Origin: Parafilimonas sp.
Lineage (GTDB): Bacteria; Bacteroidota; Bacteroidia; Chitinophagales; Chitinophagaceae
Direction: 5' to 3'
Length of the DNA stretch: 64,000 bases
Assembly (NCBI GenBank): GCA_036274175.1
Contig: DASUGF010000083.1
Span: forward strand, 79,004-143,003
The notes below the pieces were generated by a model, which had not been told where the DNA came from, made no database searches, and saw nothing but the letters and a program-made list of their open reading frames with translations. Position 1 is the stretch's first letter; every line of letters begins with the position of its first letter. Positions 2,674-64,000 of the stretch are shown piece by piece. Made by a program: the position numbers and the translations under genes.

Positions 2674-3354
2674 ATGCTTTCAAGATCATGGTGGAAAATA
2701 TTAAGCTTTATTTTATTGATGTACACTTGTACTGCAGGCTTTCTTGTAAAAATTCCCAGGCTTGATGACAGGATGCAGCAAACTGTCAGAAATCTTTTTT
2801 TTCATGTGCCGATGTGGTTTTGCATGCAAACCCTGTTTATAATATCGGTTATCTATGCTGTCAGGTATTTAATAAAACCATCTCACGCATTTGATACCTA
2901 TTCGTTGGAATTTGCCCGCACCGGGACTGTGTTCGGAATCTTAGGTTTAATAACCGGGGCCATATGGGCAAATTATCAATGGGGAGAACCCTGGAGCGGC
3001 GATCCGAAACAAAACGGCGCTGCCATCGCCCTGCTTATTTATTTGGCTTATTTTGTCTTGAGAGGGTCTGTAATTGATGAAACCAAACGTGCGAGGCTGA
3101 GTGCGGTATATAATATTTTTGCTTTTGCAATGTTGTTCCCAACGATATGGATATTGCCAAGACTTACGGAGTCTTTACATCCGGGCGGACAAGGCAGCGA
3201 AGGGAATCCCGGCTTAAATCCCAATGATACAAGCCCGGAAATGGAAATGGTTTTTCTCCCGGCGATCATTGGCTGGATATTGCTCGGCGTATGGATCTCA
3301 ACATTATTTACACGTTTACGTATTTATAAAGAACGATTATATGAAACTGCTTAA
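2674..3354 (+). CDS. ccmC: cytochrome c biogenesis heme-handling protein, CcmC/CcsA family (WWD domain)
   Basis: 226-aa polytopic membrane protein with the tryptophan-rich motif ANYQWGEPWSGDPKQNGAAIALLIYLAYF, matching the WGxxWxWDPK heme-handling signature. Confidence 0.55.
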   Translation: MLSRSWWKILSFILLMYTCTAGFLVKIPRLDDRMQQTVRNLFFHVPMWFCMQTLFIISVIYAVRYLIKPSHAFDTYSLEFARTGTVFGILGLITGAIWANYQWGEPWSGDPKQNGAAIALLIYLAYFVLRGSVIDETKRARLSAVYNIFAFAMLFPTIWILPRLTESLHPGGQGSEGNPGLNPNDTSPEMEMVFLPAIIGWILLGVWISTLFTRLRIYKERLYETA

Positions 3355-3562
3355 AAAAATCATTTTCTTTAGCCTATGCTTATTTCTTACAACGAAAATT
3401 TTTGCGCAGGACTCACTTAACAATACAAACACGGATTTCATGAATTCAAACGGTAAGATCTACGTGGTAATGACTGTAGTAGTGGTGATTGTTTCAGGGC
3501 TTTTTATTTACCTGTTCAGCATAGATAGAAAAATAAGCAAGCTGGAAAAGAAGGAAAAATAA
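3341..3562 (+). CDS. CcmD-family small membrane protein (Bacteroidetes type)
   Basis: ATG at 3341 overlaps the ccmC stop. 73 aa with one TM helix (VVMTVVVVIVSGLFIYLF) and a charged C-terminus (KISKLEKKEK), as in Bacteroidetes CcmD-like proteins found next to CcmC. The ORF-track start at 3224 is probably upstream read-through. Confidence 0.45.
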   Translation: MKLLKKIIFFSLCLFLTTKIFAQDSLNNTNTDFMNSNGKIYVVMTVVVVIVSGLFIYLFSIDRKISKLEKKEK

Positions 3563-3629
3563 TAAAAAATTTTTCGCTGCAAAAACAACAAACGTTCATT
3601 AGTTTATTCTACATATAAAATATCTAACG

Positions 3630-5048: not shown

Positions 5049-5062
5049 TAAAATAAAAAATG

Positions 5063-5098
5063 CTTGTATTAAAACCGTTGCAGCGCCAACGGTTTTAA
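5063..5098 (+). terminator. rho-independent terminator after gdhA
   Basis: aaaccgttg-cagcgc-caacggttt is a perfect 9-bp stem, followed by a T-rich tail (ttttaatgttt). Confidence 0.5.
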
Positions 5099-5214
5099 TG
5101 TTTAATGCAGGCAAGGGTAAAGCGAAATAATTTATAACATACTTTGCAAAAGTTTCTTTCCTTTACTCAATTCTAATAAAGAACTAAATTATTCCCTTTT
5201 AGGGGGTCAGGGGC

Positions 5215-6540: not shown

Positions 6541-6726
6541 CAAACATACATATCACATGTTTATCACATTTTGATATTAACAAACCATCAAAGCAGGTTT
6601 TGCGTTACTTAGTAATGGCTGAGTTGTCAGTGGTGAATGGTGAGTAAGCTCTCCATATCTTGGATTAACTCACAATTTACCTCATACGATAACTTACAAT
6701 TAACATACAGTAATACTAAAAGAAGT

Positions 6727-7197
6727 ATGATGAGAACATTTTTATTTGCAGGCATGCTGATCATTGTTGCATTATCTTCCTGTGCTCAGCAACAGGCAGC
6801 GCAAAAATTTGCTGTTACAAAAACAGATGACGAATGGAAAAAAATACTTACGCCTGAACAATTTACCGTTGCAAGAAAAGCAGGCACCGAACGTGCTTTT
6901 AGCGGCAGGTATTGGGATAACCATGAAAAAGGAACCTACTATTGTGTTTGCTGCGGCGTGCCTTTATTCAGCAGTGAAACGAAATTTGAAAGCGGCACGG
7001 GTTGGCCAAGTTTTTATGCGCCTTTAAATAAGAAATATGTAGGGGAAAGAGTGGATGATTCTTATGGCATGGAACGCACCGAAGTGTATTGTACTAATTG
7101 CGGAGCACATTTAGGCCATGTATTTAATGACGGCCCTGCGCCTACCGGTTTGCGTTATTGCATGAACTCTGCATCGCTTAATTTTAAGAAAAAATAA
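6727..7197 (+). CDS. msrB: peptide-methionine (R)-S-oxide reductase MsrB, with lipoprotein-type signal peptide
   Basis: CxxC...CxxC zinc motifs and the catalytic region (YCVCCG...GWPSF...[17 protein letters not shown]). The likely start is ATG 6727 ([22 protein letters not shown]). The ORF-track start at 6637 would translate the upstream repeat DNA. Confidence 0.85.
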
Positions 7198-7235
7198 TGT
7201 GACTGGTGTTAAGTTAAAAGTAAAATACCGCATTT

Positions 7236-7300
7236 TTTCCGTGAGACGTGAGACGACAGACGTGAGATTTTTCACGTCTCACGTTTGACATTTCACGATT
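7236..7300 (+). terminator. hairpin-rich terminator-like element after msrB (tctcacgtttgac family)
   Basis: gtgagacgtgagacgacagacgtgaga-ttttt-cacgtctcacgtttgacatttcacg contains inverted repeats (gacgtga / tcacgtc) around a T-run. The motif tctcacgtttgacRtttca also occurs at 34425-34460. Confidence 0.4.
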
Positions 7301-7493
7301 ACTTAACACTAGTGTTATGTCATGCAGAAATTGTCGCTTTTATTTGCCACGGATCACACAGAAACACGGAAGAATTTGTTGCGACATTATTATGTTGACT
7401 TACCACTAGTATTGAGCGACAAACTACATAAACACACTCTCCGCTTATAAAATCATTATCTTCCGCGCAAAATAAATTTCGACAAACCTATTC

Positions 7494-8735
7494 ATGCGAT
7501 CAATAGAACCACTTATTGTAAAAACACATAAAGCCGCAATTAACCTGCGCAATTGCACAGATACACAGATAAAAAAAACATTGCGTGATCTTGCTGATGC
7601 GCTGGAATCCAATGTGCATGCAATTCTAAAAGCCAATAAAAAAGATGTTGCAAAACAGGATGTAAATGATCCGCGCGTTGACCGTTTATTGCTGAATGAA
7701 CAACGTATAAAAAATATTGCAGGCAGCATCAAAAAAGTAAGCAGGCTGCCCAATCCATCTAATAAAATTCTTGAAAAGCGTAAATTATACAACGGCCTGC
7801 TGTTAGAGAAAATAAGCGTTCCCTTAGGTGTTGTTGGCGCCATATATGAATCAAGGCCAAATGTAACTTTCGATATTGCCGCCTTGTGTTTACGCAGCCA
7901 GAATGCCTGTTTGCTAAAAGGAAGCAGGGAAGCTGAAGCAACCAATCATGTTGCGGTGAAAATAATAAAAGATGTTTTGAAACAAAACAAGATCGATGCT
8001 GATTGTATAACCTTGTTACCCAGTGAACGGGAAGTGGTGCAGGAACTATTCACTGCAACAAAATATGTTGATGTGATCATTCCGCGTGGTTCAGACAGCC
8101 TGATACAATTTGTACGCAAAAACAGTCTTGTGCCTGTAATTGAAACAGGTGCAGGCGTCTGCCATGTTTATGTTGAAACTGATGCCGACATCAATAAAGC
8201 GGTGAGCATTGTTGTAAATGCAAAAACAACGAGGCCTTCTGTTTGCAATTCCCTCGACACAATCGTTGTAGATGAAAAAATTGCAAAACCTTTTTTAGAC
8301 AAGCTTCAACCATTGTTTTCAACCTATCCAGTGGAAATTTTTGCAGATAATAAGTCGTACAAATTATTGAATGGATATGATCATCTTCAAAAAGCATTAC
8401 CCGAAGATTTTGATCGCGAATTCCTTAGCCTGAAATGTGCGGTAAAAACAGTAAAAAACATAGACGAAGCCCTGGCACATATTGCGCAACATTCAACCAA
8501 ACATTCTGAGGCCATCGTATCTGAAAATAAAAAGGCCTGCGAAAGATTTTTGCGTGAAGTGGATGCCGCCGCTGTGTATGCAAATGCTTCTACGCGATTT
8601 ACTGACGGCGAAGAATTTGGTCTTGGTGCAGAGATCGGTATCTCTACCCAAAAATTGCATGCGCGTGGGCCGTTTGCATTGGAAAAACTGGTTTCAGAAA
8701 AATGGGTAGTAAGAGGTAACGGGCAGATCAGGTAA
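7494..8735 (+). CDS. proA: gamma-glutamyl phosphate reductase (glutamate-5-semialdehyde dehydrogenase)
   Basis: 413 aa. ProA-type aldehyde dehydrogenase blocks: VVGAIYESRPNVTFDIAALCLRSQNACLLKGSREA and the catalytic Cys region TRPSVCNSLDTIVV. Confidence 0.85.
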   Translation: MRSIEPLIVKTHKAAINLRNCTDTQIKKTLRDLADALESNVHAILKANKKDVAKQDVNDPRVDRLLLNEQRIKNIAGSIKKVSRLPNPSNKILEKRKLYNGLLLEKISVPLGVVGAIYESRPNVTFDIAALCLRSQNACLLKGSREAEATNHVAVKIIKDVLKQNKIDADCITLLPSEREVVQELFTATKYVDVIIPRGSDSLIQFVRKNSLVPVIETGAGVCHVYVETDADINKAVSIVVNAKTTRPSVCNSLDTIVVDEKIAKPFLDKLQPLFSTYPVEIFADNKSYKLLNGYDHLQKALPEDFDREFLSLKCAVKTVKNIDEALAHIAQHSTKHSEAIVSENKKACERFLREVDAAAVYANASTRFTDGEEFGLGAEIGISTQKLHARGPFALEKLVSEKWVVRGNGQIR

Positions 8736-8787
8736 TATAACTGCGATTGATGATCTTCTGCACACCGCTTTATATTCGCTAACCTGT

Positions 8788-9687
8788 TTGTTAAATTTGA
8801 TCATGCTTTCAAAGCACATTAGAAGAATAACACCAAGGCCAAAAAAGAACAGCAAAGAATATTTTATCTGGTGTGATGAGAGTGATCAGTCCGGCAAATT
8901 TTTTTCTAATTTTTATGGCGGCGTTTTAGTAAAGAGTGAAAACCTGCATGAAGTGATGCATGACCTGCAAAAGGTTTGCAGGCGCCTGCATTTATATGAT
9001 GAAATTAAATGGCAAAAAATTTCCGATCACTATGTGGTAAAATATACCGCGCTGATGGATGCATTTTTTAATTTGATAAAAGATGGCAAAATAAAAGTGC
9101 GCATTATGTTTATTCAAAATACATACAAAACAATTCACCTGCACGATATGCATAAGCGCGATGTTTTTTTTATTTTATATCGCCAGCTTGTCAAACATGC
9201 TTTTGGTTTGATACATAGCAACAACGATGGGAAAGAAATTTTTCTCCGGCTTTATTTCGACTTTCTTCCTTACACACTGAAGAAAAAAGAAATATTTAAA
9301 CAATCGCTCAATAACCTTCAGTCATCAAGTTCTTTTCAACTGGCAGGTATCAAAATAAGAAAACGGGATATATCGGAAGTTGACTCTAAAAAACATTTAT
9401 TGCTGCAAACGCTTGACGTTGTGTTAGGCGCTGTATGCTTTTACTTAAACAACAAACACAAAGAAATTCTGCAGCAAAAGGAAGGAAGCCGGCGTACAAG
9501 GGCAAAAGAAAAAGTATATAAATACATCAATAAAAGAATAAAGCAGATAAGGAAGGGATTTAATATGAGTACTTCAACGGGCATCACTTCAGAACAGGAT
9601 CATTGGATACATAATTACCGTCACTGGAGATTTACACCTGCAGCATTTGAGGCAGATAATGAAAGCATTTTATTCGCGACACATTAA
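8788..9687 (+). CDS. DUF3800-family protein (uncharacterised; often in accessory or defense islands)
   Basis: 299 aa. Begins YFIWCDESDQSGKFF, matching the hhhDESG motif, and has LQTLDVVLGAV, matching lQlaDllaG. Both are recalled DUF3800 signatures. The region looks lower in GC than proA upstream; this is judged by eye only. Confidence 0.55.
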   Translation: MLNLIMLSKHIRRITPRPKKNSKEYFIWCDESDQSGKFFSNFYGGVLVKSENLHEVMHDLQKVCRRLHLYDEIKWQKISDHYVVKYTALMDAFFNLIKDGKIKVRIMFIQNTYKTIHLHDMHKRDVFFILYRQLVKHAFGLIHSNNDGKEIFLRLYFDFLPYTLKKKEIFKQSLNNLQSSSSFQLAGIKIRKRDISEVDSKKHLLLQTLDVVLGAVCFYLNNKHKEILQQKEGSRRTRAKEKVYKYINKRIKQIRKGFNMSTSTGITSEQDHWIHNYRHWRFTPAAFEADNESILFATH

Positions 9688-9740
9688 TTCTTCATCATTA
9701 ATTGATTGAATAAAGTTTGCGTATATAAATTCCTCTGGCG

Positions 9741-10682
9741 CTAAACATCCGCCTCCCGAATAACCATTACCATATCATCATAACCGTTTCTGAATAATAA
9801 CATTTTTAAAGTGCTCATGAAACGGTTAAGCTCTCGTTCCACGATGAGATCATAATCTGTATTCAATTGGTTAAATTCATTGGGAAGCAGGTTGGATATA
9901 GAAAAGTTGATGCCGCTGATGATTGTTGGAAAATCTATTAAGCCCAATGTCTCATCTGTTATATGCGTATCCAGCGTAATATTTCTTGGCCTTCCTGCAT
10001 AGCTAAAACTAACATTCGCTCCGGAAAATTTTCTTTTAAGCCGTTCAAATTTGAGATTAAGATCCGTTGTGATCCTGTCGGGAATGATGATCTTTAATTT
10101 AACGTTGGTATATTTTACCTGATTATAATCAAAGCCGTCATTCTCAATAAGGTATTTGCATGTTGGTGAAATAAGATTTTCAAAATAAACAGCAGCCAGG
10201 GTTGCGGACGGGAAAAAATTGACCTCATTGTCGGAACTGTTCAAAAAAATATTCTTAACCTGTGAAACTGCATCCACAAAACTATTTGCATCTGCTTTGT
10301 CGAATTTTGCCAATGTTATTCCCTGCAGGTCCGACAGCAGCTTTAGATCTTTTTCAATCACAAAAGCGCATTTGGAAAGCCCCAGCCTGCCAATGAATAA
10401 ACCCAATTCAAAAAGTATATTGTCCCTTGGCTGCAACACTTCTGTTTCGTGATAGATCACTCTGTCATCTGTTGTGCCTAACAGAACTCCAAAATCAAAC
10501 TTCAGGGAAGCCTTTAACAGGTCTGACAAAAAATTCTGATTTATCCTGAAAGCAGCAACATCCCATATCCTGTCATTCCACAGGGTGACATCAAACTCTG
10601 TTTCTAAAATCTGTTTAGCTGTATTGGCTAATTGTAATTCTTCAGAAGATGATCCGATAAATATCCGTTTCCTGGTAGCCAT
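9741..10682 (-). CDS. TIR-like (PF10137/COG4271-type) domain protein with uncharacterised ~170-aa C-terminal domain
   Basis: 313 aa. The N-terminal 140 aa align block by block to the recalled PF10137 consensus. RIFIGSSSE matches kvFIgHg. FGVLLGTTDD matches fAiilltpdD. PRDNILFELGLFIGRLGLSKCAFVIEKDLKLLSDLQGI matches pRARqNVvfElGyfvgkLGrervcll...PSDlsGv. No cyclase or CD-NTase gene is adjacent. The gene is a solo unit with its own upstream spacer at 10683-11190. Confidence 0.55.
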   Translation of the reverse strand: MATRKRIFIGSSSEELQLANTAKQILETEFDVTLWNDRIWDVAAFRINQNFLSDLLKASLKFDFGVLLGTTDDRVIYHETEVLQPRDNILFELGLFIGRLGLSKCAFVIEKDLKLLSDLQGITLAKFDKADANSFVDAVSQVKNIFLNSSDNEVNFFPSATLAAVYFENLISPTCKYLIENDGFDYNQVKYTNVKLKIIIPDRITTDLNLKFERLKRKFSGANVSFSYAGRPRNITLDTHITDETLGLIDFPTIISGINFSISNLLPNEFNQLNTDYDLIVERELNRFMSTLKMLLFRNGYDDMVMVIREADV

Positions 10683-11193
10683 TCAATATGGTCATTAACA
10701 ATTTTTAGCAACACAATAATTCTTTGTGCAACTTACAAATTTTTACCGCCCGGGAAGAACCCTTAATGACAAAACAAAGGATGTGGCAATACAAATGATG
10801 GTATCTATTTGCATGCTCTCCTTCAAAAAAGGCACTTCAAAAAGTTTCCCGGCATCAACGCCTAAATCATCAGATGACGGCTTAAGGCGTAAATGCAGCA
10901 TACGGATGGATCAAAAAACATTACAGTAATTACAAAATAAAAATGCAATCGCTCAGCATGCAGGATAACAAGCCTTACGATATAATAACCATTAAGCAAT
11001 CAAACGGGGAAGACCTGTCGCTCTACTTTGATATTTCCAAATTACTTTGGAAAATTTTAAAATTTTGGTGATGACGCAGGCGCGAAACCCGGCAAAACCA
11101 ATAATTGATCACCTGGCTTATACAACCTGGCAGGACATAAATTAACAAATGGGGAATATAATCCAACCTGCCGGGTTCAAATTGGGTTCCATC

Positions 11194-50617: not shown

Positions 50618-51724
50618 ATGAGAGTATATAAATATTCCCCTGTTATGGCATTTGTATTGTTACTGTTTGGTTCCTGCAAAAAAGACGCCGTCAGTATCAA
50701 TAATAATAACGATGATAAGGAGCTGCTGCAAAAAGATGCAACGGTACCGGACAATTTTGGACTGAAAATAAATTTTTCAGCTTACGGATATCCCAAATTT
50801 AATGGAGGCCATCTTTGGACGGGTAACAGCACTTTTCTGATTGCAGCGGAATCGGATATTATTGAAGCAGACTTTAACAAGAAAACTTTAACGGACATCG
50901 CACCGAAAAGTGGTGGCCTTTTATTAGGCCTGACCGGAGATAAAAATGCTGTTGTTTTTGCAGGTCGATTAAATAACGGGTCAGGTTTTTATACTTATGC
51001 TTTGCCGCAAGGCCCTTTTAATTTTATAGGCTCTTTGTCCAATAATGAGTCAGGCAACGCAATTGCATTTGCTAATAAAGTCTTGTATTACAAAGGCACA
51101 AGCCCCCCGCAGCAACCCTGTGACGGTTTTTGCATCCCATTACCTGGTACAGGCTTAATAGACGCACATCTCTTTTGCATAGATATGATGACCCAAAGCA
51201 AGACTGATTTAGGAGACCTCTATCCTGTAAAATTTTCAGACGGTGGAAAATATGCGTTAATCAACTCCACTGATTGGAGCGGTCAATCTTACATACTTGA
51301 TATGAATAGTCTGCATATTATTGACTCCTTTCCAACACAAACATCTGGCAGTAATTTGATATGGAAGGACGATCTTTTAATTCTAAGTTCAGATGTTATA
51401 TCTTCTCCAGGTAAAATTGAAATTACCAATGTGAAAACCAATGAAGTAAAGGAAAGTTATGAATCTGAAACAATGCTTATTGATTCGAAATTCTTTTTAT
51501 CATCCGATGATGACATAATCATTTATACAGGTCCTTGTCTTGGTTCAGATTGCGCTTATGCGATCTGGACTTTGAATCGCATAACAGGAGAGCAAAAAAA
51601 AATCGTCTATACTTCGGCTGGTTCATTTCAAACATCACCTTTTGAAGAAGTTAGTATTTCGCCCGATCACAAAAAAGTTGTGTTCCGTTATATCAATGAC
51701 CTGTATTTAAAAGAACTTCAATAA
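50618..51724 (+). CDS. hypothetical lipoprotein
   Basis: Signal peptide and lipobox (VLLLFGSCKKD). 368 aa with no recognised domain. Possibly a beta-propeller. Confidence 0.45.
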   Translation: MRVYKYSPVMAFVLLLFGSCKKDAVSINNNNDDKELLQKDATVPDNFGLKINFSAYGYPKFNGGHLWTGNSTFLIAAESDIIEADFNKKTLTDIAPKSGGLLLGLTGDKNAVVFAGRLNNGSGFYTYALPQGPFNFIGSLSNNESGNAIAFANKVLYYKGTSPPQQPCDGFCIPLPGTGLIDAHLFCIDMMTQSKTDLGDLYPVKFSDGGKYALINSTDWSGQSYILDMNSLHIIDSFPTQTSGSNLIWKDDLLILSSDVISSPGKIEITNVKTNEVKESYESETMLIDSKFFLSSDDDIIIYTGPCLGSDCAYAIWTLNRITGEQKKIVYTSAGSFQTSPFEEVSISPDHKKVVFRYINDLYLKELQ

Positions 51725-53975: not shown

Positions 53976-54071
53976 CCAGGCAGGAAAACCAACGTTTCAG
54001 AACCAGCACATCTGGCAGCTAAGCCTTACGGGAAACTCTTCCATTCAACACTTATTTCATAAATTAGCTGC

Positions 54072-54650
54072 ATGTCAACCCGTACAATTCATTCCGAATC
54101 CAGCTTATATTTCATAACCTTTACCTGTTTTAATTGGCTGCATCTCTTTCAACTTACCAACAGTTATGACACGGTTTATAAATGGTTCAGCCATCTTAAA
54201 GAACAAAAGAATATAAAAACTACTACCTACGCCCCGAAAGCTTTCGGGGTGCCCAACCATGTTCATTGTATTTTATTCTTTCCTTCACCAGATTTTTCAT
54301 TAAACAAAATCATCAGCAATGGAAAACGATTTATAGCGTATGAAATAATTAATAGATTAGAAGCAACAAATCAAACCGAAACATTAAATGAATTAGAATC
54401 AGCTTTAACTGCAAAAGAAAAAACTAAAGGTCAAAAACATAAAGTATTTGAAGAAAGCTTTGATGCAAAAAGCATAGATAATAAAAAGTTCTTTTTAAAG
54501 AAGTTGAACTACATTCATTTAAATCCGTTCGTGGTAATTGGAACTTAGTAACCGACTGGAGAGAATATGAACATAGCAGCGCAGGGTTTTATGAGTTACA
54601 GCAAGTAAAACATTTTACTCCGGTTCATTATGAAGAATTAGAATAAAACG
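54072..54650 (+). pseudogene. REP-associated tyrosine transposase (RAYT, IS200-like Y1 HuH), frameshifted near 3' end
   Basis: The HuH motif VPNHVHCILF and the Tyr region KRFIAYEI are present. The frame breaks at about 54535: aatccgttcgtgg here, against aatcctgttcgtgg in the duplicated copy. With the missing T restored, the ORF continues ...NPVRGNWNLVTDWREYEHSS...EELE to 54650. Confidence 0.65.
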
Positions 54651-54701
54651 CAGGGTCTCGTAGCCGCACACAAGCCTTTACGAAGACCCTGCTGTGACGT
54701 G
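54647..54701. repeat. REP element, type 1 (contains GTAG)
   Basis: aacgcagggtctcgtagccgcacacaagcctttacgaagaccctgctgtgacgtg. The inverted arms are gcagggtct / agaccctgc. Confidence 0.7.
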
Positions 54702-54998
54702 AATAGATTAGAAGCAACAAATCAAACCGAAACAGTAAATGAATTAGAATCAGCTTTAACTGCAAAAGAAAAAGCCAAAGGTCAAAAACATAAAGTATTT
54801 GAAGAAAGCTTTGATGCAAAAAGCATAGATAATAAAAAGTTCTTTTTAAAGAAGTTGAACTACATTCATTTAAATCCTGTTCGTGGTAACTGGAACTTAG
54901 TAACCGACTGGAGAGAATATGAACATAGCAGCGCAGGGTTGTATGAGCTACAACAAGTAAAGCATTTTACACCGGTTCATTATGAAGAATTAGAATAA
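54699..54998 (+). pseudogene. partial tandem duplicate of RAYT 3' two-thirds (99-aa fragment)
   Basis: 54704-55055 is a ~352-bp near-identical tandem copy of 54351-54701. The duplication junction falls exactly at the REP end, gacgtg|aatagattagaag. Confidence 0.65.
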
Positions 54999-55054
54999 CA
55001 CGCAGGGTCTCGTGGCCGTACTCAAAGCCTTTACGAAGACCCTGCTGTGACGTG
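54999..55054. repeat. REP element, type 1
   Basis: acgcagggtctcgtggccgtactcaaagcctttacgaagaccctgctgtgacgtg. Confidence 0.7.
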
Positions 55055-55073: not shown

Positions 55074-57326
55074 CTATGTCAGTTTTACCACCTGCGGAAA
55101 AAACGGTTGGTTGTAAAAACGTTTACCGGTTGCTTTATACAATGCATTGGCCAGCGCACCGATAGCAGGCGGGCCGGATGGTTCTCCCATACCCGTGGGG
55201 TCTACTTCACTTTTTACAAAATGTGTTTCTATGTTCTGTGGGGCTTCTTTATGCCGTATCAGCCTGTACCCGTCAAAATTACTTTGATCGGGTACCCCGT
55301 TTGTAAAGGTAATGGCGCTAAACATGGCATGCCCGAATGCATCTGTTACAGCACCGGCAGACAGGTTATTTGCGGCATCAGGATTTATAACAATACCGCA
55401 ATCCACCGCAGTGGTTACTTTTTCAATTACCGGTTTATTGTCTTTCATTACGATATCAACAACATGCGCCACATAACTCCGGTGACAGAAATAAGCCGCC
55501 ACACCTCTTGAAACACCCGGTGCAGGTGTGTCCCAACCGGATTTTTCTTTTACCAGTTTTAATACGCCTGCATAACGGTCAATTTCATAATCATTGTCCT
55601 TTCCAACCGGTTTGCTTTTTGCTTTTTCAAAAAGGTCTAACCGCATTTGAATGGGATCCTTACCCATTGCTTCCGCTACTTCATCCAAAAATGATTGCTC
55701 GGCCCCGGCTATAAAATTTGATGCCGGCGCCCTGAAAGCACCTGTGGTGATATTAGTAGGGATGTCCCATTGCTGGGCGAGATAATTATCTATGGCGCCT
55801 GCAGGGAACCTGTTTGCATGCAACGGGCTCTCCGGGATACCGCCTGCTATTACATGAAAGGCGATCAAATTTTTATTTTCATCGAGCGCTGCCCGGTAAG
55901 CAGCATGATATGCCGGTCTGTACACACCGTTTGTCATATCATCTTCTCTCGTATAGATCAGCTTTACCGGCGCTTTCATTTTTTGCGAGATAACCGCCGC
56001 TTCCACACCAAAGTGCCCATACAGCCTTCTTCCAAAACCACCGCCCATACGGGTCATCCTTACTTCTACTTTATCCAGCGGTAACCCCAGCCTGTCTGAA
56101 ATGGATTGTTCAAGAAACGAAGGTGTTTGCACGGGGCCGGTAAGTATGGCGCTGTCATCTTTTACATCAGCAAAAAAATTCATCGGCTCCAGGGTACTAT
56201 GTGCAAGAAAAGGGCAGGAATAACTTCTTTCAATAATGGTGACTGCTTTTTTAAAGGCAGCTTCGGGATCGCCATCTTTTCTTATTGTTTTGATCTTTTT
56301 TGCAGGAACAGAAGCCATTTGCTGTATATGAACAGCAGTATTTTCAAAGCCGGCAGGCGTTATTATCTCCACGTTATCACCAAACAGGTTTAATTTTTTA
56401 CTGCTGGCTTTTATGGGTTCTGTTTCTGCCTTAAAGGCTTTTTTTGCCTGCATAACCTGCCAGGTAGATTTGCCAACAATGGCCAGCAATTTTGGAAAAG
56501 CGGATACATCACTCCATTGCGTATTCATTTTTGCGGGATAAACGTCAATGTAAAACGCATCAACAATTCCGGGCATGGATTTTAAGGCGCTTACATCGGT
56601 TTCTTTCAGTTGCAGTCCGAATGCAGGAGGATGTACGATCATCGCGATAAGCATACCCTCTTCTTTGTAATCCAAACCAAAAAGCGGCTGGCCCAAAACA
56701 ATTTTCTGACCGTCTACATTTTTACGGCTGGTACCGATAATTTTAAAATCCTTTACTTTTTTCAGTTCAACTTTTTCAGGCGCCGGCAATTTAGATGCGG
56801 CAGAAGCAAATGCACCATAGCCGGCTGATTTACCACTGGCTTTATGCGACAGTACGCCATCTTTTGTTTCTATTTCAGCAACCGGCACTTTCCATTCGTT
56901 GGCGGCAGCCTGTTTAAGCATTGCTTTTGCAGTGGCGCCGGCCGTACGCATGGCCTCCCATGAAGCGCTGATTGAATTACTTCCACCGGCTATTTGCATG
57001 GGTTTATACAAATCGGTATTAAGCGGCGCCTGTTCTACCATCACATTTTTCCAGTCAATGTCCAGTTCCTCCGCCACCAGCATTGGCATACTCGTCTTTA
57101 CATTCTGGCCAATCTCCGGGTTGGGCGACATTAAAGTGACCACGCCATTTTCGCCTATTTTCAAATACCCGTTTAACTGGTACCATTCTTTTGGCAACTG
57201 CAGTGCTCCACTTACCGGCGATTTGCAACCTGTAAATAAATTAAAGGTGAGCAGCATACCGCCTCCTGCTAATGTAGTTACTTTCAAAAAAGAACGCCTG
57301 CTGTGAGATGTTTTTATGCCTGGCAT
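55074..57326 (-). CDS. xanthine dehydrogenase-family molybdopterin-binding subunit (IorB/aldehyde oxidoreductase-like) with Tat signal
   Basis: 750 aa. Twin-arginine motif SRRSFLKVTTLAGGG. Ald_Xan_dh C-terminal Mo-binding blocks (GGGFGRR, ...). Confidence 0.8.
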   Translation of the reverse strand: MPGIKTSHSRRSFLKVTTLAGGGMLLTFNLFTGCKSPVSGALQLPKEWYQLNGYLKIGENGVVTLMSPNPEIGQNVKTSMPMLVAEELDIDWKNVMVEQAPLNTDLYKPMQIAGGSNSISASWEAMRTAGATAKAMLKQAAANEWKVPVAEIETKDGVLSHKASGKSAGYGAFASAASKLPAPEKVELKKVKDFKIIGTSRKNVDGQKIVLGQPLFGLDYKEEGMLIAMIVHPPAFGLQLKETDVSALKSMPGIVDAFYIDVYPAKMNTQWSDVSAFPKLLAIVGKSTWQVMQAKKAFKAETEPIKASSKKLNLFGDNVEIITPAGFENTAVHIQQMASVPAKKIKTIRKDGDPEAAFKKAVTIIERSYSCPFLAHSTLEPMNFFADVKDDSAILTGPVQTPSFLEQSISDRLGLPLDKVEVRMTRMGGGFGRRLYGHFGVEAAVISQKMKAPVKLIYTREDDMTNGVYRPAYHAAYRAALDENKNLIAFHVIAGGIPESPLHANRFPAGAIDNYLAQQWDIPTNITTGAFRAPASNFIAGAEQSFLDEVAEAMGKDPIQMRLDLFEKAKSKPVGKDNDYEIDRYAGVLKLVKEKSGWDTPAPGVSRGVAAYFCHRSYVAHVVDIVMKDNKPVIEKVTTAVDCGIVINPDAANNLSAGAVTDAFGHAMFSAITFTNGVPDQSNFDGYRLIRHKEAPQNIETHFVKSEVDPTGMGEPSGPPAIGALANALYKATGKRFYNQPFFPQVVKLT

Positions 57327-57412
57327 ATTACGACTGTTTAATTGTTAGAAAAGACAGTAAGAAAATTTATAGGATACCATCGCTGCTTTCGGTGGTCTTC
57401 CTGTACAAACGG

Positions 57413-57511
57413 GACGAATTCGATAGTATGAAACTATGTTGCTTCGTTTTAAGAGCGCCTTGTTGGTGACAACACCCAACAAGGGCGAGGTGACAACACC
57501 CAACAAGGGTG
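57413..57511. repeat. ~85-nt repeated hairpin element (copy 1, with duplicated 3' arm) inserted between the two cistrons of the minus-strand molybdoenzyme operon
   Basis: gacgaattcgatagtatgaaactatgttgcttcgttttaagagcg-ccttgttgg-tgacaacac-ccaacaaggg-cgagg-tgacaacac-ccaacaaggg. The ccttgttgg / ccaacaagg stem is perfect over 9 bp. Confidence 0.6.
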
Positions 57512-57532
57512 AAAGTATATTTTCATGGCATC

Positions 57533-57988
57533 TCATTGACCCGTAGCGGTTTTGATTGCCTCCCTGATGCGTACATAAGTGCCGCAGCGGCAAATATTGC
57601 CATTCATGGCAGTTTCAATTTCATCGTCAGTAGGGTGACTATTATTTTTCAACAAAGCGGCAGCAGTCATCATCTGGCCTGCCTGGCAATAACCGCATTG
57701 TGGGACGTCATGTTCAATCCAGGCTTTTTGTACAGGATGATCGCCTTTCTCTGATAACCCCTCGATGGTGGTGATGGCTTTGTCACCCACCGACGATACA
57801 GGAAGCTGGCATGACCGGATAGCGTCATCACCAAAATGAATAGTACAGGCGCCGCACTGCGCAATGCCGCAACCGTACTTGGTGCCAACGAGGTTGAGAT
57901 GATCACGCAACACCCATAACATGGGCGTAGCCGGGTCAACATCTACCTGTTGCTTTTTTCCATTAACGTTTAAATTAAAGATTGCCAT
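57533..57988 (-). CDS. (2Fe-2S)-binding small subunit of the xanthine dehydrogenase family (IorA-like)
   Basis: CGIAQCGACTIHF and CGYCQAGQMMTAAAL...GNICRCGTY are the two [2Fe-2S] cluster motifs; 151 aa. Confidence 0.85.
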   Translation of the reverse strand: MAIFNLNVNGKKQQVDVDPATPMLWVLRDHLNLVGTKYGCGIAQCGACTIHFGDDAIRSCQLPVSSVGDKAITTIEGLSEKGDHPVQKAWIEHDVPQCGYCQAGQMMTAAALLKNNSHPTDDEIETAMNGNICRCGTYVRIREAIKTATGQ

Positions 57989-58767: not shown

Positions 58768-59217
58768 ATGGTTCTACATGTAAACGGTGAAAAGCATGAG
58801 ATCACTGTGGAACCGGATGTTGCCCTGTTAACCGTATTGCGGGAACACCTTAATTTAACAGGCAGCAAATATGGTTGCGGCGAAGGAGCCTGCGGCGCCT
58901 GCACCGTACTGGTAAATGGAAACACTGTACACTCATGCATCACCCCCGTAAGCTCTGCTGCAGGTAAAGAGATCACCACGATCGAAGGCCTTGAAAAAAA
59001 TGCAAAACTTGCAGCGGTGCAACAAGCCTTTTTGACAACAGATGTTTTTCAATGTTCCTATTGTGCATCGGGCATGATCATGGCGGCCGCAGCGCTGCTC
59101 CAAAAAAATCCTGCGCCTTCAGAAGAAGCGATAGTAAAAGGAATGAACGGAAACATATGCCGGTGCGGCGCATATCCCTATATCATTAAGGCCATTAAGC
59201 TGGCTGCTGAATCTTAA
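58768..59217 (+). CDS. (2Fe-2S)-binding small subunit (IorA-like), paralog
   Basis: CGEGACGACTVLV and CSYCASGMIMAAAAL...GNICRCGAY; 149 aa. Confidence 0.85.
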   Translation: MVLHVNGEKHEITVEPDVALLTVLREHLNLTGSKYGCGEGACGACTVLVNGNTVHSCITPVSSAAGKEITTIEGLEKNAKLAAVQQAFLTTDVFQCSYCASGMIMAAAALLQKNPAPSEEAIVKGMNGNICRCGAYPYIIKAIKLAAES

Positions 59218-59227
59218 ATCACGCACT

Positions 59228-61375
59228 ATGGAAAATCGAGATTATTCACGCCACCCATTTGAGCCGTCAACCGACGAGCTTCCATCCGAATCCCGCTATC
59301 ACTTTACATTGGACCGCAGAAAGTTTTTTAAACTTGGCGGCGGCGGTTTGGTTGTTGCCTTTGTGCTGCACGATCTTATTTCATTCGGTAACAACAATAT
59401 TGCTGCTCCGGATGAATCGCAACCGGATAGCGTTGACGCATGGATACATATAGGCGAAGATGGTGCAGTGAATGTTTTTACCGGTAAAGTGGAAGTGGGA
59501 CAAAACATTCGTACCTCTTTGTCGCAGATCGTGGCGGAGGAACTGATGGCGCCGCTGTCATCCATTACCATGATTATGGGCGATACCGATCTTGTGCCGT
59601 ATGATGCCGGCACCTTTGGCAGCCGCACTACGCCCCAAATGGGTCCGCAATTGCGGAAGGCGGCGGCCACAGCACGGGAAGCGTTGAAAGAACTGGCAGC
59701 AAAAAAATGGGATACGCCGCCAACGAAGTTGCTTGCTGAAAACGGGATGATAATAAACACGGCTACCAAAGAGAAGATCAATTATGGCACATTGACAAAA
59801 GGAAAGCAACTGTTAATGAAGATTGCAGACAACGTGCCGGTTATCGCTGCAAAGGATTGGAAGGTAGCAGGGAAATCAGCGCCTAAAATAGATCAGAAAG
59901 ATTTTATTTCCGGAAGGCATCAATATGTTTCGGATATGAAGTTGAAAGGAATGCTTTATGGCAAAGTATTGCGACCGCCTTCTTACGGAGCAAAATTGAT
60001 GGAAGCAGACTTGTCAAAAGCAAAGCGCATACCCGGTGTAATTGCGGTGAAGGATGGCGATTTTGTGGGCGTGGCTGCGCCGGACAGCAGGACCGCCACC
60101 AGCGCTTTACTGGCTATTGATGCCAAATGGGAAGAGCGTAAAGATCATCCATCCAACGCCAATATTTTTGACTACCTGGTTCAGAATGCCTCACAGGAAA
60201 AGGATGCAAGAAACGGTGACATTACAGGCGATGTAGAGGGTGGATTATCCGGAGCGGCATTTAAATATTCCAACACCTACAACATTGATTATATAGCCCA
60301 TGTACCGCTGGAGCCAAGGGCCGCCCTGGCGCAATGGGCTGATGGAAAGCTTACCGTGTGGACGGGCACGCAAAGACCATTTGGCGTTCAGCAGCAGCTG
60401 GCTGAAGCATTCCGGTTGAATAAAGAAAAAGTTAGAGTAATCATGCCGGATACGGGATCGGGATACGGAGGAAAACATTCCGGTGAAGCAGCGATCGAAG
60501 CAGCGCGCCTGGCACAGGAAGCGAAGGCGCCGGTGAAAGTTGTATGGACAAGAGAGGAGGAGTTTACCTGGGCGTATTTCAGGCCGGGTGGCGTGATCGA
60601 GGTGAATGCAGGTGTAAATAAAGATGGAACGATCACCGCATGGAAATTTACAAATTATAATTCGGGTGGCGCGGGGCTCGGCACTCAATACAAAGCAGGT
60701 AGTAAACAAGTAGCGTATGTGCCTTCGGATACGCCATTAAAACAAGGCTCTTATCGCGGACTTGCGTCAACCGCCAATGTATTTGCACGGGAATGCAGCA
60801 TGACTGATCTCGCCCGTTTGATCAGCATGGATCCGCTTGATTTCCGGGTTAAAAATTTAGACGATAAACGGTTTATTGCCGTGCTGCAGGCTGCTGCGAA
60901 AGCTTTTGGCTGGGACAAGCCGAAAACGGCCGGTCATGGTTATGGCATTGCAGGCGGATTTGAAAAAGGTGGTCATGTAGGCGCCTGCGTTGAAGTGATG
61001 GTGAACAGTGATAAAGAAGTGAAGGTGCTTCGTGTAACGCAGGCTTTTGAATGCGGCGCTATAGTGAACCCGCATCATTTGGAAAACCAGGTAACTGGTT
61101 CTATTATCATGGGGCTTGGCGGCGCCTTATTTGAAGCAGTTCAATTTGCTGATGGCAAAATGCTAAATGCCGGTCTTTCGTCATACAGGGTTCCCCGTTT
61201 TAGTGATGTGCCTAAAATTGAGGTCATTTTATTAGATCGTAAAGATATCCCCTCTGCCGGCGCAGGCGAGGCAGCTATTATTGGCGTTGCACCCGCTATA
61301 CGCAATGCTATTCTTGATGCTGCGGGAACAGCGATCAATACTTTACCCATGTTGCCGAATGGAATGTTGGTTTAA
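59228..61375 (+). CDS. xanthine dehydrogenase-family molybdopterin-binding subunit (IorB-like), paralog with Tat-like signal
   Basis: 715 aa. RRKFFKLGGGGLVVAF is a Tat motif. Mo-binding domain blocks (GSGYGGKH, ...). A 10-nt gap to the small subunit suggests an operon. Confidence 0.8.
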   Translation: MENRDYSRHPFEPSTDELPSESRYHFTLDRRKFFKLGGGGLVVAFVLHDLISFGNNNIAAPDESQPDSVDAWIHIGEDGAVNVFTGKVEVGQNIRTSLSQIVAEELMAPLSSITMIMGDTDLVPYDAGTFGSRTTPQMGPQLRKAAATAREALKELAAKKWDTPPTKLLAENGMIINTATKEKINYGTLTKGKQLLMKIADNVPVIAAKDWKVAGKSAPKIDQKDFISGRHQYVSDMKLKGMLYGKVLRPPSYGAKLMEADLSKAKRIPGVIAVKDGDFVGVAAPDSRTATSALLAIDAKWEERKDHPSNANIFDYLVQNASQEKDARNGDITGDVEGGLSGAAFKYSNTYNIDYIAHVPLEPRAALAQWADGKLTVWTGTQRPFGVQQQLAEAFRLNKEKVRVIMPDTGSGYGGKHSGEAAIEAARLAQEAKAPVKVVWTREEEFTWAYFRPGGVIEVNAGVNKDGTITAWKFTNYNSGGAGLGTQYKAGSKQVAYVPSDTPLKQGSYRGLASTANVFARECSMTDLARLISMDPLDFRVKNLDDKRFIAVLQAAAKAFGWDKPKTAGHGYGIAGGFEKGGHVGACVEVMVNSDKEVKVLRVTQAFECGAIVNPHHLENQVTGSIIMGLGGALFEAVQFADGKMLNAGLSSYRVPRFSDVPKIEVILLDRKDIPSAGAGEAAIIGVAPAIRNAILDAAGTAINTLPMLPNGMLV

Positions 61376-61530
61376 TGTTAATCCGGAAAAGAAATTTTTT
61401 CTATAGGTGGTGTCTGCATCAATCGAAAATTTTGTTCTGTAGTCCGGTCTGTGAGGGCACAAGTCTGATAGAGAAAACCTATTGATGTAAAAACTTCATT
61501 TTGAAATCATTTAATCGAACAGAATAATTA

Positions 61531-62571
61531 TTACATGTATAGAAGTCTGTTTGCGTCAACCTCATTAGTTTTTAAAACTGTTTTGATAGTTCCAATAGTT
61601 TTTGGAATTTTTTTTATACTATCTCTTATCAACTCAATTTTCTTCATTTGTTCATCAAAATTTTCTTTAATGGATTCTTGATTATTGCCTGAAAAGAAAA
61701 TGGTAGAATTCAAGCAAGTTTCTCTATCGAACGGATGACCAATATTTATATAAGCATAGTTGGTTATAAACAATCTATCGCTTGAGAAAATTTTAGAAGA
61801 ATCTATATAACTTTCCATAAATAAATTTTCATTTCCACCAAGGCATTCCATCAAAAAATTAATTTGAGGTTTATAGTCTGAAATTGATTTATCCATTTCA
61901 GTTAAAATAAGTAGATGAAATTTTAAGCTTAGGTTTTCAAGAATAAATGCTTTAATTATTTTTATAATCCCCGGAGCTTTATTCATTTTCCAATTCTTAC
62001 CTGAAAAAAAATATGGATCAACAATTATTAAAGAATTGCATGGATGTTTGCAGACAGTAATTTCATCCATTCCCTTTGAGATTGTTTTACCTGCAAAATT
62101 TTTATCTTCATAAAATGAATTAAAATCAAACCCGTTTCCAATTACAACAAGTCCAAACTTATTTTGTATTATCTGACTTTCTGCAACATCTAAAGGGATA
62201 AAATAAACTGCATTAGGGTCATCGGTTTCTTGTATAAATTTCTCAAAAGATATATTATTTGTAAGCGATTGTTCAAAAGAGACGTTACATATTAAATCAT
62301 TTTTTAACGCTTTGTGGTACAGATATTCTTTCATGGTTTGAAAATTTTTATTTCCAGCAATCGGGTTATAAATATTTTCAACTCTTGATGCAGACAAATC
62401 AGTATTAATTTTTGCACATTGCAAAAAATTTAGAATTCTATCAATTGTATTTCGTTGCTTTTGGGTGTTCATTCTTTCAGAATAGTCTGTTGAGGAGGAT
62501 AATTCTTTCTCCTTGCTTTCTAAATAATCTACAAACGAATCAGCCACATAAGCAGAGGGTCTTATGCTCAT
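61531..62571 (-). CDS. hypothetical protein, partner of upstream ATPase-like gene in AT-rich cassette
   Basis: 346 aa. No motif recognisable by eye (CKHPCNSLIIVDPYFF, VIGNGFDFNSF). Its start lies 1 nt after the stop of the upstream gene (TGA-T-ATG), so the two look translationally coupled. Confidence 0.45.
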   Translation of the reverse strand: MSIRPSAYVADSFVDYLESKEKELSSSTDYSERMNTQKQRNTIDRILNFLQCAKINTDLSASRVENIYNPIAGNKNFQTMKEYLYHKALKNDLICNVSFEQSLTNNISFEKFIQETDDPNAVYFIPLDVAESQIIQNKFGLVVIGNGFDFNSFYEDKNFAGKTISKGMDEITVCKHPCNSLIIVDPYFFSGKNWKMNKAPGIIKIIKAFILENLSLKFHLLILTEMDKSISDYKPQINFLMECLGGNENLFMESYIDSSKIFSSDRLFITNYAYINIGHPFDRETCLNSTIFFSGNNQESIKENFDEQMKKIELIRDSIKKIPKTIGTIKTVLKTNEVDANRLLYM

Positions 62572-62572
62572 A

Positions 62573-63874
62573 TCAGTTTTTTTGAGAATTCTTTAATAAA
62601 AAAATGTCCAACGCAATATTATCCGCTTCGTCAAAAAAACCTTTTCCAAATTCATTACTTAAAGTTCCGTCGGGTTGAATTTTAATTTTTGTTATTTGAG
62701 ACTGACCTTTTGAAATTTCAAGCGGATTTGAAAAATAATATATAATGGAATCATCTGAATTTAATTCGCTCTTGGTATCTATTGTCAAATATTGAAGTTT
62801 TCTTATTAGATATTCGCTATGGGTTTCAATAATAAATTGATTATCGGAATACTTGACAGCTTCATAAAAAAAGTCTGCTAATAATGATTGTAAAGCAGGA
62901 TGAAGATTCGATTCAGGTTCTTCAATTACAAATAAATTTTTCTTAGAAGTAAAAATCATTATAATTATGGGAATTAACTGCGTAAATCCATAACCCATTT
63001 CATTCAAATGAAATGTTTTGCCATGTTTTATAAGTGATATTGTGTATCCAAATCCAGAAACCGACTCTACTTTTAATTCAGTTCTACGATCAATTATTCC
63101 AAAGCGTTGCAACCATCCATTAATATACCCTTGTTTTAACATCACATCAAATTCATCACTATCTAAGATCTTAGAATCTTCAATATAATACGAAGGCATG
63201 CTTTGATATATTTTCAAAGATTCATTAAGTTTGGGATTGTCTTTTGATTTAAAAAATTTCGATTGTTCTGCCCTTACACTTTCCAATACCTCGAAATTTG
63301 AAAAACAATCAAACAGATTTTCAGGAAGATATTCAGGCATTCCAAATAGCTTGTTTATATATTCAGAAACATATTCATTTAAAAATTCATCATCAACAAA
63401 ATCTTTAAGGTCTTCATTGATTATTTCCCTAAAAGAAGGGGTTTTAAATTTTGTTCTCCGATTATATGCTATATCTCCTAAGGCACAATAAGCTGCATTA
63501 ATAAAATTGTATATGGGATAATTATCTTGTTTTAAAAAATTCTTGTAAGAATAACTATCTGAAACATGCATATCATTATTCCTTTCCAGAAAACTCCAAA
63601 TATTGATTTTAATTTTATCAAAAATTTCATCAGTCGAATTGCTTAACCTATCCCTCAATTTAAGTGAATTCAGTACGCCTTCATGCAGGGAAATAAAACT
63701 GCTTGTATATTCAAAAATATTACTGCGAACATTTCCAGAAACTTCCAAAAGCGTTTCTCCATCAATACCTATGTAAATATATGCCAGCCCATCTCTGTTA
63801 TAGTCTGCATAATAGCTGTAATAAGTTACGTCTGAACCTTCATTCTTATTTTCAATTTGAACAGGGCTGTTCAA
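62573..63874 (-). CDS. ABC/AAA_21-(DUF3696)-like ATPase-fold protein lacking an evident Walker A P-loop
   Basis: The C-terminal third has the signature-like HLNEMGYGFTQLIPIIIMIF, Walker B LFVIEEPESNLHP and the H-loop FIIETHSEYLIRKLQ, typical of OLD/AriA/AAA_21-type ATPases. No GxxxxGK[ST] occurs in the N-terminal 280 aa. The ORF-track start is TTG; the first in-frame ATG is about 100 codons downstream, and an in-frame stop lies at 63953-63955. Confidence 0.45.
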   Translation of the reverse strand: MNSPVQIENKNEGSDVTYYSYYADYNRDGLAYIYIGIDGETLLEVSGNVRSNIFEYTSSFISLHEGVLNSLKLRDRLSNSTDEIFDKIKINIWSFLERNNDMHVSDSYSYKNFLKQDNYPIYNFINAAYCALGDIAYNRRTKFKTPSFREIINEDLKDFVDDEFLNEYVSEYINKLFGMPEYLPENLFDCFSNFEVLESVRAEQSKFFKSKDNPKLNESLKIYQSMPSYYIEDSKILDSDEFDVMLKQGYINGWLQRFGIIDRRTELKVESVSGFGYTISLIKHGKTFHLNEMGYGFTQLIPIIIMIFTSKKNLFVIEEPESNLHPALQSLLADFFYEAVKYSDNQFIIETHSEYLIRKLQYLTIDTKSELNSDDSIIYYFSNPLEISKGQSQITKIKIQPDGTLSNEFGKGFFDEADNIALDIFLLKNSQKN

Positions 63875-64000
63875 TTCTAAAAAATAAAAAAGGCAGCAAA
63901 CAAAGAAGATGTGGATAACTTTGTAATGAACTAAAAAACAGAGATATACACACTATGCTTACTACCTTTTTTGCAGACCTCATAGATTTCAGGCGCCCGC

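Follow-up and report, generated by a model that had tools for sequence, protein, structure and literature searches.

The final part of the DNA analysed here (a stretch of 64,000 nucleotides, called the window) carries two adjacent genes that encode an ATPase-like protein with no visible P-loop and a partner of 346 amino acids, and this locus raises the question of what kind of module the two genes form and why the nucleotide-binding motif is missing. We consider it probable that the two genes were acquired by horizontal transfer as a module akin to the Menshen anti-phage system, with an NsnB-like ATPase and an NsnC-like effector but without NsnA, and that this copy was disabled by a 5' truncation.

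Gene layout and base composition of the locus

A 433-aa open reading frame (ORF) with a TTG start occupies positions 62573..63874 (-), and a 346-aa ORF with an ATG start occupies positions 61531..62571 (-). The TGA stop codon of the ATPase gene and the ATG of the partner gene are separated by a single nucleotide, 62572..62572 (-), as seen in the junction sequence caa aaa aac TGA t ATG agc, and this spacing implies operonic coupling of the two genes; in the orthologous loci the corresponding gaps are 3-5 nt. Two coupled minus-strand genes in an AT-rich block were already described in an initial reading made from the sequence alone, and both observations were borne out. The GC content of positions 61531-63874 is 0.289 (29%), as against a mean of 0.408 (41%; sd 0.026, minimum 0.344; z = -4.55) for all the same-sized windows across positions 1-61000.

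Only the left flank, with a molybdoenzyme gene, is in view. The convergent intergenic region between the stop codons of the molybdoenzyme and partner genes (61376..61530; GC 0.329) forms the left edge of the low-GC block, and neither a terminator-like site nor a flanking repeat was found in it. On the right side, the AT-rich sequence ends at about position 63950, and the last 50 nt have a GC content of 48%. Similarity to full-length ATPases breaks off at about 63862-63880. The stretch located immediately upstream of the ORF (63875..63954) is non-coding, AT-rich (26% GC) and unlike the sequences that precede intact loci; a blastn-short comparison of positions 63862-64000 with those sequences, made to look for an internal deletion with the original promoter retained, gave low-complexity matches only. 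Positions 63955..64000 (+), with normal GC, may represent the start of a divergently transcribed neighbour gene (MLTTFFADLIDFRRP...).

Identification of the ATPase

According to profile matches and alignment, the protein encoded at 62573..63874 is an NsnB-like ABC ATPase with a DUF3696 tail. Its Pfam matches are AAA_15 (1.4e-20, profile positions 121-374 of 374 only), AAA_21 and DUF3696, and its best PADLOC match is NsnB (3.7e-35, profile positions 107-337 of 345), a profile that the full-length orthologues match end to end (6-337 of 345, about 1e-53). NsnB-type ATPases are reported to have a GxG signature and, instead of the glutamine of the Q-loop, an arginine (PMC12065111). The GxG signature, replacing the ABC SGG motif, is found in the invariant columns G294-Y-G296 (GYGFTQ; 62987..62995 (-)), and R201 (63272..63274 (-)), an invariant alignment column within the invariant VRAEQ, is by its inferred position probably this arginine. 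The Walker B region LFVIEEPESNLHP (62897..62935 (-); I317-E321 and N323-P326 invariant in the alignment) and the H-loop region IIETHSEY (H352; 62810..62833 (-)), the two C-terminal motifs named in the initial reading, are both present in the translation, and the alignment agrees for the H-loop. The DUF3696 alpha-helical tail comprises residues 371-419 (62618..62764 (-); PF12476, 3.3e-07, 30.9 bits versus a cutoff of 22). The earlier assignment to the OLD/PARIS/Septu-type class of ABC ATPases, tightly coupled to an effector, thus stands.

The missing P-loop

No Walker A motif is present in the ATPase ORF of the window, which lacks the N-terminal beta-hairpin, Walker A and the first helix of the AAA_15/AAA_21 core. 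Its start was previously noted as an unclear TTG without a nearby ATG, and indeed the first in-frame ATG is found at about codon 102. The closest relatives (43-52% identity) are proteins of 507-536 aa with a canonical P-loop, GKNNSGKSS, at about residues 35-42; all seven aligned relatives (34-52% identity, 507-546 aa) have a P-loop of the form G(K/T)N(N/S)SGKSS. The window ATPase begins at column 89 of this alignment, with about 88 N-terminal residues absent relative to the other proteins. The reported absence of Walker A therefore holds for the window ORF, but not as a family trait, since the close full-length relatives all have GKNNSGKSS.

A frameshift hiding the P-loop, previously suspected at positions 63860-63960, was ruled out: all three upstream frames contain stop codons and no ATPase-like sequence, and a tblastn search with seven orthologue N-termini gave no match in the whole window, including the 126 nt upstream of the ORF. 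Because the full-length relatives have a P-loop and no remnant of it is found anywhere in the window, the gene appears to be 5'-truncated, rather than to encode an intrinsically P-loop-less ATPase or to contain a frameshift. The loss would comprise the first ~88 codons (beta-hairpin, Walker A and helix 1) together with the original upstream region, leaving the rest intact, and since Walker A is lost with these codons, normal ATP binding would be impossible for this copy, which is probably a broken, recently disabled remnant. As a general caution, the lengths of the orthologues should be checked before a "P-loop-less ATPase" is called from raw sequence.

Two other explanations of the missing 5' end were weighed against a truncation. 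The source is a metagenome-assembled genome, and the real genome could encode a full-length ATPase if the contig contained a chimeric or collapsed join at about 63862-63890, which we regard as unlikely. In agreement with such an artefact, neither ORF shows decay downstream of the break, and the sole independent contig (Logan SRR25158403, 2.9-kb, 100% identical) ends at position 63888, within one k-mer of the breakpoint, where no repeat accounts for the contig end, so that a graph branch is possible. However, the same contig agrees for 14 nt past the TTG, into sequence unlike any ATPase N-terminus. Its other end, too, falls within an ordinary gene, as would be expected if coverage were simply low, and upstream of the ORF no break is visible before the sequence reaches a plausible start of a divergent gene, at normal GC. 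It is far less probable that the protein is naturally P-loop-less, as was implicit in the sequence-only reading, and acts as a nucleotide-independent scaffold or regulator of its partner, even though its 433 codons are open, it is annotated by NCBI as an ordinary 433-aa protein, and Walker B, the signature motif, the H-loop and the DUF3696 tail are all kept. Against this explanation stand the P-loop and the additional N-terminal residues of every aligned relative, the loss of core beta-strands of the ABC fold beyond the P-loop itself, and the position of the TTG start, exactly where homology ends; moreover, the shorter database matches come from very short contigs (1.1-3.4 kb).

The partner protein

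The structure of the partner, predicted with a pLDDT of 95.5, consists of two domains. The N-terminal alpha/beta domain (residues 1-158; 62098..62571 (-)) is weakly PIN-like and has no conserved acidic catalytic set, whereas the C-terminal domain (residues 159-346 plus the stop codon; 61531..62097 (-)) is a PLD-superfamily domain of the MIT_C type and the predicted effector; the top Foldseek match of this modelled domain is MITD1. In PB-PLD1/MIT_C domains, a D/E site is located after beta2 and an HDR motif before beta5 (PMC12065111). D185 (IIVDPY; 62017..62019 (-)), conserved in 78 of the 78 family members, follows immediately on the second strand of the PLD-like domain and matches the former site, and D265-R266 (xDR; 61774..61779 (-)), directly before strand 266-269, corresponds to the latter (R in 78/78, D in 68/78); the preceding residue is His in 15/78 family members and Ser in the window copy. 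Other conserved residues are H176 (43/78) and K198. The HxK(x)4D motif of the classical HKD PLD enzymes was not found, and the spacing of the conserved residues is unlike that of HKD proteins; the domain resembles the non-HKD MIT_C branch.

The NsnC effectors of Menshen consist of an inactive PIN-like N-domain and a C-terminal effector domain (PMC12065111). The partner appears to have this NsnC layout, a weakly PIN-like N-domain followed by an MIT_C/PLD-type effector domain, and its C-terminal domain fits the described effector set (PB-PLD1, MIT_C-like). The N-domain would be catalytically dead, and the PLD-fold domain keeps its family-invariant residues. No match to the partner was found in Pfam or PADLOC, and across the 78 family members no PADLOC model matched more than one; with its PLD fold, the partner is indeed a protein without HNH, TOPRIM or DUF4435 hallmarks, as initially stated. 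A comparison of the partner profile with PDB sequences gave chance-level matches only, and no matches on phages or plasmids were found in IMG/VR, PLSDB and INPHARED, nor any PHROG match. The family comprises at least 258 cluster representatives, found here mainly in Chitinophagales and other Bacteroidota.

Related loci and probable horizontal origin

In every partner-bearing locus that was fetched, the partner homologue is located directly downstream of a DUF3696 ATPase. One of the intact loci, 8387-11038, is from GCA_038207175.1. The GC content of the cassette is below that of its flanks in 8/8 host contigs, and the flanking genes differ from locus to locus. These changing flanks and the foreign composition agree with the horizontal acquisition proposed in the sequence-only reading. 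The neighbours in relatives suggest a defence context and include AbiEii, a PLDc_2 protein, WYL-WCX regulators, PIF1-like helicases, a PIN/UPF0175 pair and KilA-N. Distant versions of the cassette have an added WYL regulator, and most of them also a PIF1/RecD-like helicase; the subfamily to which the window copy belongs is without a helicase. A literature search for the combination of WYL, PIF1 and ABC ATPase found nothing.

Three related contigs carry a molybdoenzyme gene that is 87% identical, without the cassette beside it. The genes downstream of this molybdoenzyme gene are different in these relatives, and hence no clean empty site or target duplication can be defined. With regard to mobility signals, no tRNA genes were found, flanking repeats, direct or inverted, were limited to short matches at chance level, and promoter-like and terminator-like sites were no more numerous than in shuffled sequence.

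Comparison with known systems

The sequence-only reading could not assign the two components to any nameable pair, a view that has to be revised, as the ATPase is NsnB-like and the partner appears to have the NsnC layout of Menshen. The domain analysis of the Solibacillus silvestris type of Menshen was reported by Li et al., NAR 2025 (PMC12065111), and the S. silvestris system is the only one cited as experimentally validated. Like Menshen, our pair encodes an ABC/AAA_15 ATPase that ends in a DUF3696 tail, bears a GxG signature and has an invariant Arg where the Q-loop would be expected, and a downstream partner that combines a weakly PIN-like N-domain lacking catalytic residues with an effector domain of the PB-PLD1/MIT_C class, including the acidic residue after beta2 and the (H)DR before beta5. 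It differs in that an NsnA (ParB-DUF262 + ParBDB) gene is found in no locus of the pair, neither in the intact orthologous loci nor in the distant ones examined. The ATPases also exceed the 345-position NsnB profile by about 170-350 aa, the His of HDR occurs in a minority of partners and is replaced in the window copy, and Walker A, kept in the orthologues, is lost from the window ATPase by truncation. Because NsnA is absent, we classify the pair as a sensor-less variant related to Menshen, and not as a member of it.

PARIS (AriA plus the DUF4435/TOPRIM nuclease AriB) has the same two-gene layout of ATPase and effector without a separate sensor, and AriA profiles match the window ATPase (1e-19) and the full-length orthologues (about 1e-31 to 1e-34); sequestration of the effector by an ATPase oligomer is, by analogy, likely to be another common feature. 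The present partner differs in having a PLD and not a TOPRIM/DUF4435 fold, and the ATPase has a DUF3696 tail and a far better NsnB score. The ATPases of Septu (PtuA, with the HNH protein PtuB) and Gabija (the ATPase-TOPRIM protein GajA, with the UvrD helicase GajB) belong to the same OLD-type ABC class, but the matches are weak (about 4e-8 for PtuA) and the nuclease candidate here is a separate PLD-fold protein, in which Pfam and PADLOC detect no HNH. Unlike OLD and GajA, the ATPase ends in a DUF3696 tail without a fused TOPRIM, and these profiles match only its core; the SF1 helicase (PIF1/RecD-like) of the distant variants recalls GajB. As for MIT_C, a PLD-like domain of this type forms the C-terminus of human MITD1 and has also been reported at BrxL C-termini. 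MITD1, however, is a eukaryotic protein that binds membranes, acts in abscission and has an MIT domain at its N-terminus, and it is not known to act as a nuclease; in our family the MIT_C-type domain is preceded by a PIN-like domain and is linked to an ATPase.

Two further alternatives were considered. The pair could be a toxin-antitoxin or addiction module, with a PLD-like toxin and the ATPase as its controller, that serves maintenance of the cassette rather than phage defence. Small, mobile, AT-rich two-gene cassettes at varied locations would suit such a role, one copy adjoins a UPF0175/PIN pair, and Pfam describes AAA_21 as a putative AbiEii toxin of a type IV TA system. We nevertheless judge it improbable, slightly more so than an assembly artefact, given that Menshen, PARIS, Septu and Gabija, the closest relatives to have been characterised, all act against phages, that the WYL regulators and helicases of the distant variants are typical of defence loci, and that the survival of the partner without a working ATPase argues against a constitutively toxic effector. 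The addiction and defence roles are not mutually exclusive. A canonical three-gene Menshen system, with NsnA located past the end of the window, is the least probable of all the explanations considered: the gene order NsnA-NsnB-NsnC would place NsnA upstream of the ATPase, where the window ends at 64000, but host-level GC is reached again by 63951, after about 80 nt, a divergent gene apparently starts at 63955, and no intact orthologous or distant locus has the DUF262/ParB gene upstream.

Proposed mechanism and significance

By analogy with the predicted NsnB4-NsnC2 complex, PARIS and Septu, the effector of the intact Menshen-related copies would be kept inactive by an ATPase oligomer. An infection cue, detected either by the enlarged ATPase or, in the distant variants, by accessory helicase and WYL proteins, might drive the ATPase to bind or hydrolyse ATP. 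The PLD-type phosphodiesterase or nuclease would then be released or activated and attack nucleic acid. It is conceivable, though less likely than not, that the pair of DUF3696-ATPase and PIN-like/MIT_C-PLD protein is a self-contained, undescribed anti-phage system that dispenses with a ParB/DUF262 sensor, with sensing by the enlarged ATPase, or by the PIF1/RecD-like helicase and WYL regulator in distant variants.

For the host genome the locus has little consequence, since this copy is most likely a dead remnant. A survey of Menshen that starts from the DUF262 sensor, such as that of PMC12065111, would overlook NsnB/NsnC-like pairs that have no sensor, and of the two proteins only the ATPase was matched by PADLOC v2; censuses of defence in Bacteroidota may therefore undercount such pairs. 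The family offers a simple two-gene model for NsnB-type control of an effector without NsnA. Its partner provides a bacterial setting for the poorly understood MIT_C-type PLD domain, common to MITD1 and BrxL, with the invariant D185 and R266 as candidate catalytic residues, and if the pair were indeed a sensor-less defence system, this would be the first testable enzymatic role for a domain of this type.

The truncated ATPase gene and its junction

The cassette consists of two co-oriented minus-strand open reading frames (ORFs) in the final 2.6 kb of the window: an ATPase-like ORF of 433 aa with a TTG start (62573..63874) and a partner ORF of 346 aa with an ATG start (61531..62571). The tight coupling proposed in the sequence-only reading was confirmed, the junction being ...aac TGA t ATG agc..., with a stop-to-start spacer of exactly 1 nt. 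Translation also confirmed the motifs LFVIEEPESNLHP and IIETHSEY in the upstream protein, the lack of a Walker A motif in the called ORF, and the TTG start, the first in-frame ATG lying ~100 codons in.

Pfam analysis of the ATPase identified AAA_15 (1.4e-20, starting only at profile position 121), AAA_21 and a C-terminal DUF3696 tail. In PADLOC, the top model by a wide margin was NsnB, the ATPase of the anti-phage system Menshen (3.7e-35, profile 107-337 of 345 only), with AriA, GajA and PtuA far behind. The nearest relatives from a search of 5.8 billion proteins are 507-536 aa long, with identities of 52, 48, 47, 43 and 44% at a query coverage of 96-99%. Each carries ~88 extra N-terminal residues, comprising a beta-hairpin, a canonical Walker A (GKNNSGKSS, about 35-42) and the next helix; in the alignment, the first residue of the window protein falls in column 89. 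The full-length orthologues cover the NsnB profile end to end (6-337 of 345, about 1e-53). A GYG signature and the Arg of VRAEQ are invariant in the alignment, in agreement with the described NsnB peculiarities, GxG replacing SGG and Arg replacing the Q-loop Gln (PMC12065111). Judged from its sequence, the window gene is thus a truncated NsnB-type ABC ATPase.

The ATPase had been read as P-loop-less, with a frameshift concealing the P-loop named as a possibility to exclude. The former was ruled out as a family trait by the Walker A of each aligned relative. The latter was ruled out because all three upstream frames contain stops and nothing resembling an ATPase, and because tblastn with seven orthologue N-termini gave no match to either the 126 nt upstream or the rest of the 64-kb window. 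With ~88 residues missing and no remnant detected, the P-loop-less state reflects a 5' truncation of the window copy; since the called ORF resembles the relatives from residue ~5 onwards, the TTG start lies at the breakpoint. The NCBI annotation of the source contig gives an identical 433-aa product. The sole independent assembly, a Logan contig (SRR25158403), is 100% identical to window positions 60994-63888 and reaches 14 nt past the TTG on its upstream side before it stops. No repeat accounting for this end was found locally, and its position near the breakpoint could reflect strain heterogeneity or simply low coverage. As the ATPase lacks core strands and the P-loop, the module in the window is most likely non-functional; as both ORFs are still open in 29% GC DNA, the truncation is either a recent event or an assembly error.

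The partner protein

The partner alone had no significant match in Pfam, PADLOC, NCBIfam or PHROG. Only four relatives were detected at word-index sensitivity; searching 1.84 billion cluster representatives with a profile raised this to 258 at E <= 1e-3, nearly all of 300-360 aa. An AlphaFold2 model based on a 78-sequence family alignment was very confident (pLDDT 95.5, pTM 0.93), and Foldseek analysis of its C-terminal half independently placed MITD1 at the top (E 7e-5, probability 1.00), ahead of PLDs. Individually, 6/78 family members match Pfam MIT_C (best 2e-4) and one matches BrxL. All 78 members have R266 and D185 (IIVDPY), the latter directly following the second strand; K198 is present in 72 and D265 in 68; T270, N271 and Y272 are nearly invariant, and D265-R266 is preceded by His in 15. 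This D185/D265-R266 pattern is that of MIT_C and of PB-PLD1, an effector class of Menshen NsnC, in both of which beta2 is followed by an acidic residue and beta5 is preceded by HDR (PMC12065111). The partner is read as a weakly PIN-like N-terminal domain joined to an MIT_C-type PLD domain, and the window copy keeps all family-invariant residues.

Relationship to known defence systems

The partner was correctly read as lacking HNH, TOPRIM and DUF4435 domains, having a PLD fold instead. On these grounds PARIS, Septu, Gabija and OLD were rejected. Canonical Menshen was also rejected, the gene for its defining DUF262/ParB sensor NsnA having been sought and found absent from all loci examined. The best description of the cassette is a Menshen variant, NsnB/NsnC-like and without the sensor. 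The class and two-gene layout proposed earlier, an ABC ATPase plus an effector, stand, and the NsnB/NsnC connection replaces the view that no nameable pair fits. PADLOC v2 recognises the ATPase alone, and the published Menshen survey, seeded on DUF262 (PMC12065111), would have missed such a pair. The degraded window copy is of moderate to low interest; the family, as a two-gene model, is of somewhat more.

Analogy with the predicted NsnB4-NsnC2 complex, PARIS and Septu suggests that an intact ATPase oligomer may sequester or restrain the PLD-type effector, and an infection cue would lead, through ATP binding or hydrolysis, to its release or activation. With NsnA missing, sensing would have to reside in the ATPase itself, these ATPases being ~170-350 residues longer than the NsnB profile, or in accessory proteins.

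Distant variants encode ATPases of 635-707 aa plus a WYL-WCX regulator, with a PIF1/RecD-like SF1 helicase nearby in 4/5 of those with readable flanks; AbiEii, a PLDc_2 protein and KilA-N also occur near them. WYL-WCX or PIF1/RecD-like companions lie at 2835-3836 in locus L008, 2436-3449 in L012, 1634-2635 and 3644-4987 in L014, and 2539-3522 and 3606-4982 in L015; in L014 and L015 they are directly upstream of the cassette relative and co-oriented with it. This suggests a larger helicase-ATPase-PLD system, recalling the ATPase-plus-helicase logic of Gabija. L015 also contains two tandem ATPase-plus-partner pairs (5001-10496). Its second partner (298 aa) and that of L013 (356 aa, 6614-7684) were not matched by the partner-family profile, so related ATPases are joined to varying downstream proteins, echoing the effector polymorphism described for NsnC.

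Linkage and probable horizontal acquisition

The pairing is conserved: all recovered loci that encode a partner homologue have it directly behind a DUF3696 ATPase, on the downstream side and 0-9 nt away. They come from MAGs (Chitinophagales, L002/L006; a second Parafilimonas, L007; L014; L015), a JGI contig, Logan contigs (L003-L005) and five metagenome loci (L008-L012). The neighbours are never alike (FeoB, PEP carboxylase, a TonB-dependent receptor, a UPF0175/PIN pair).

The suspected AT-richness of the block is borne out by windowed GC, 0.289 for 61531-63874 vs a mean of 0.408 for all same-length windows from the remainder of the 64-kb sequence (sd 0.026, minimum 0.344; z = -4.55). Cassette GC is below that of the flanks in 8/8 host contigs tested (0.29 vs 0.40 in the two closest). 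Three related contigs carry an 87% identical molybdoenzyme gene and no cassette. Together with the foreign composition and varied flanks, this supports the proposed horizontal acquisition. However, no integrase, tRNA or flanking repeats were found in the window, and viral and plasmid collections yielded no homologue. A plus-strand frame of host-like GC (MLTTFFADLIDFRRP...) opens with an ATG at 63955 and runs past the window end (63955-64000); it was not found in related contigs and is probably a divergent neighbouring gene marking the right edge of the island.

Other features of the window

A 368-aa ORF (50618-51724, +) in a 36% GC stretch and a 158-aa ORF (54072-54548, +) had no Pfam or PHROG match. 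The latter lies in a second low-GC patch (54000-55000, 0.33-0.34 vs about 0.41 background), between a sulfate permease gene and a molybdoenzyme operon. Two paralogous, divergent pairs of [2Fe-2S] and molybdopterin-binding subunits (55074-57988, -; 58768-61375, +) are isoquinoline oxidoreductase / nicotinate dehydrogenase-like. Relatives at 87% identity (L016, L017) instead have the second pair downstream on the same strand, indicating that the molybdoenzyme neighbourhood has been rearranged between close genomes.
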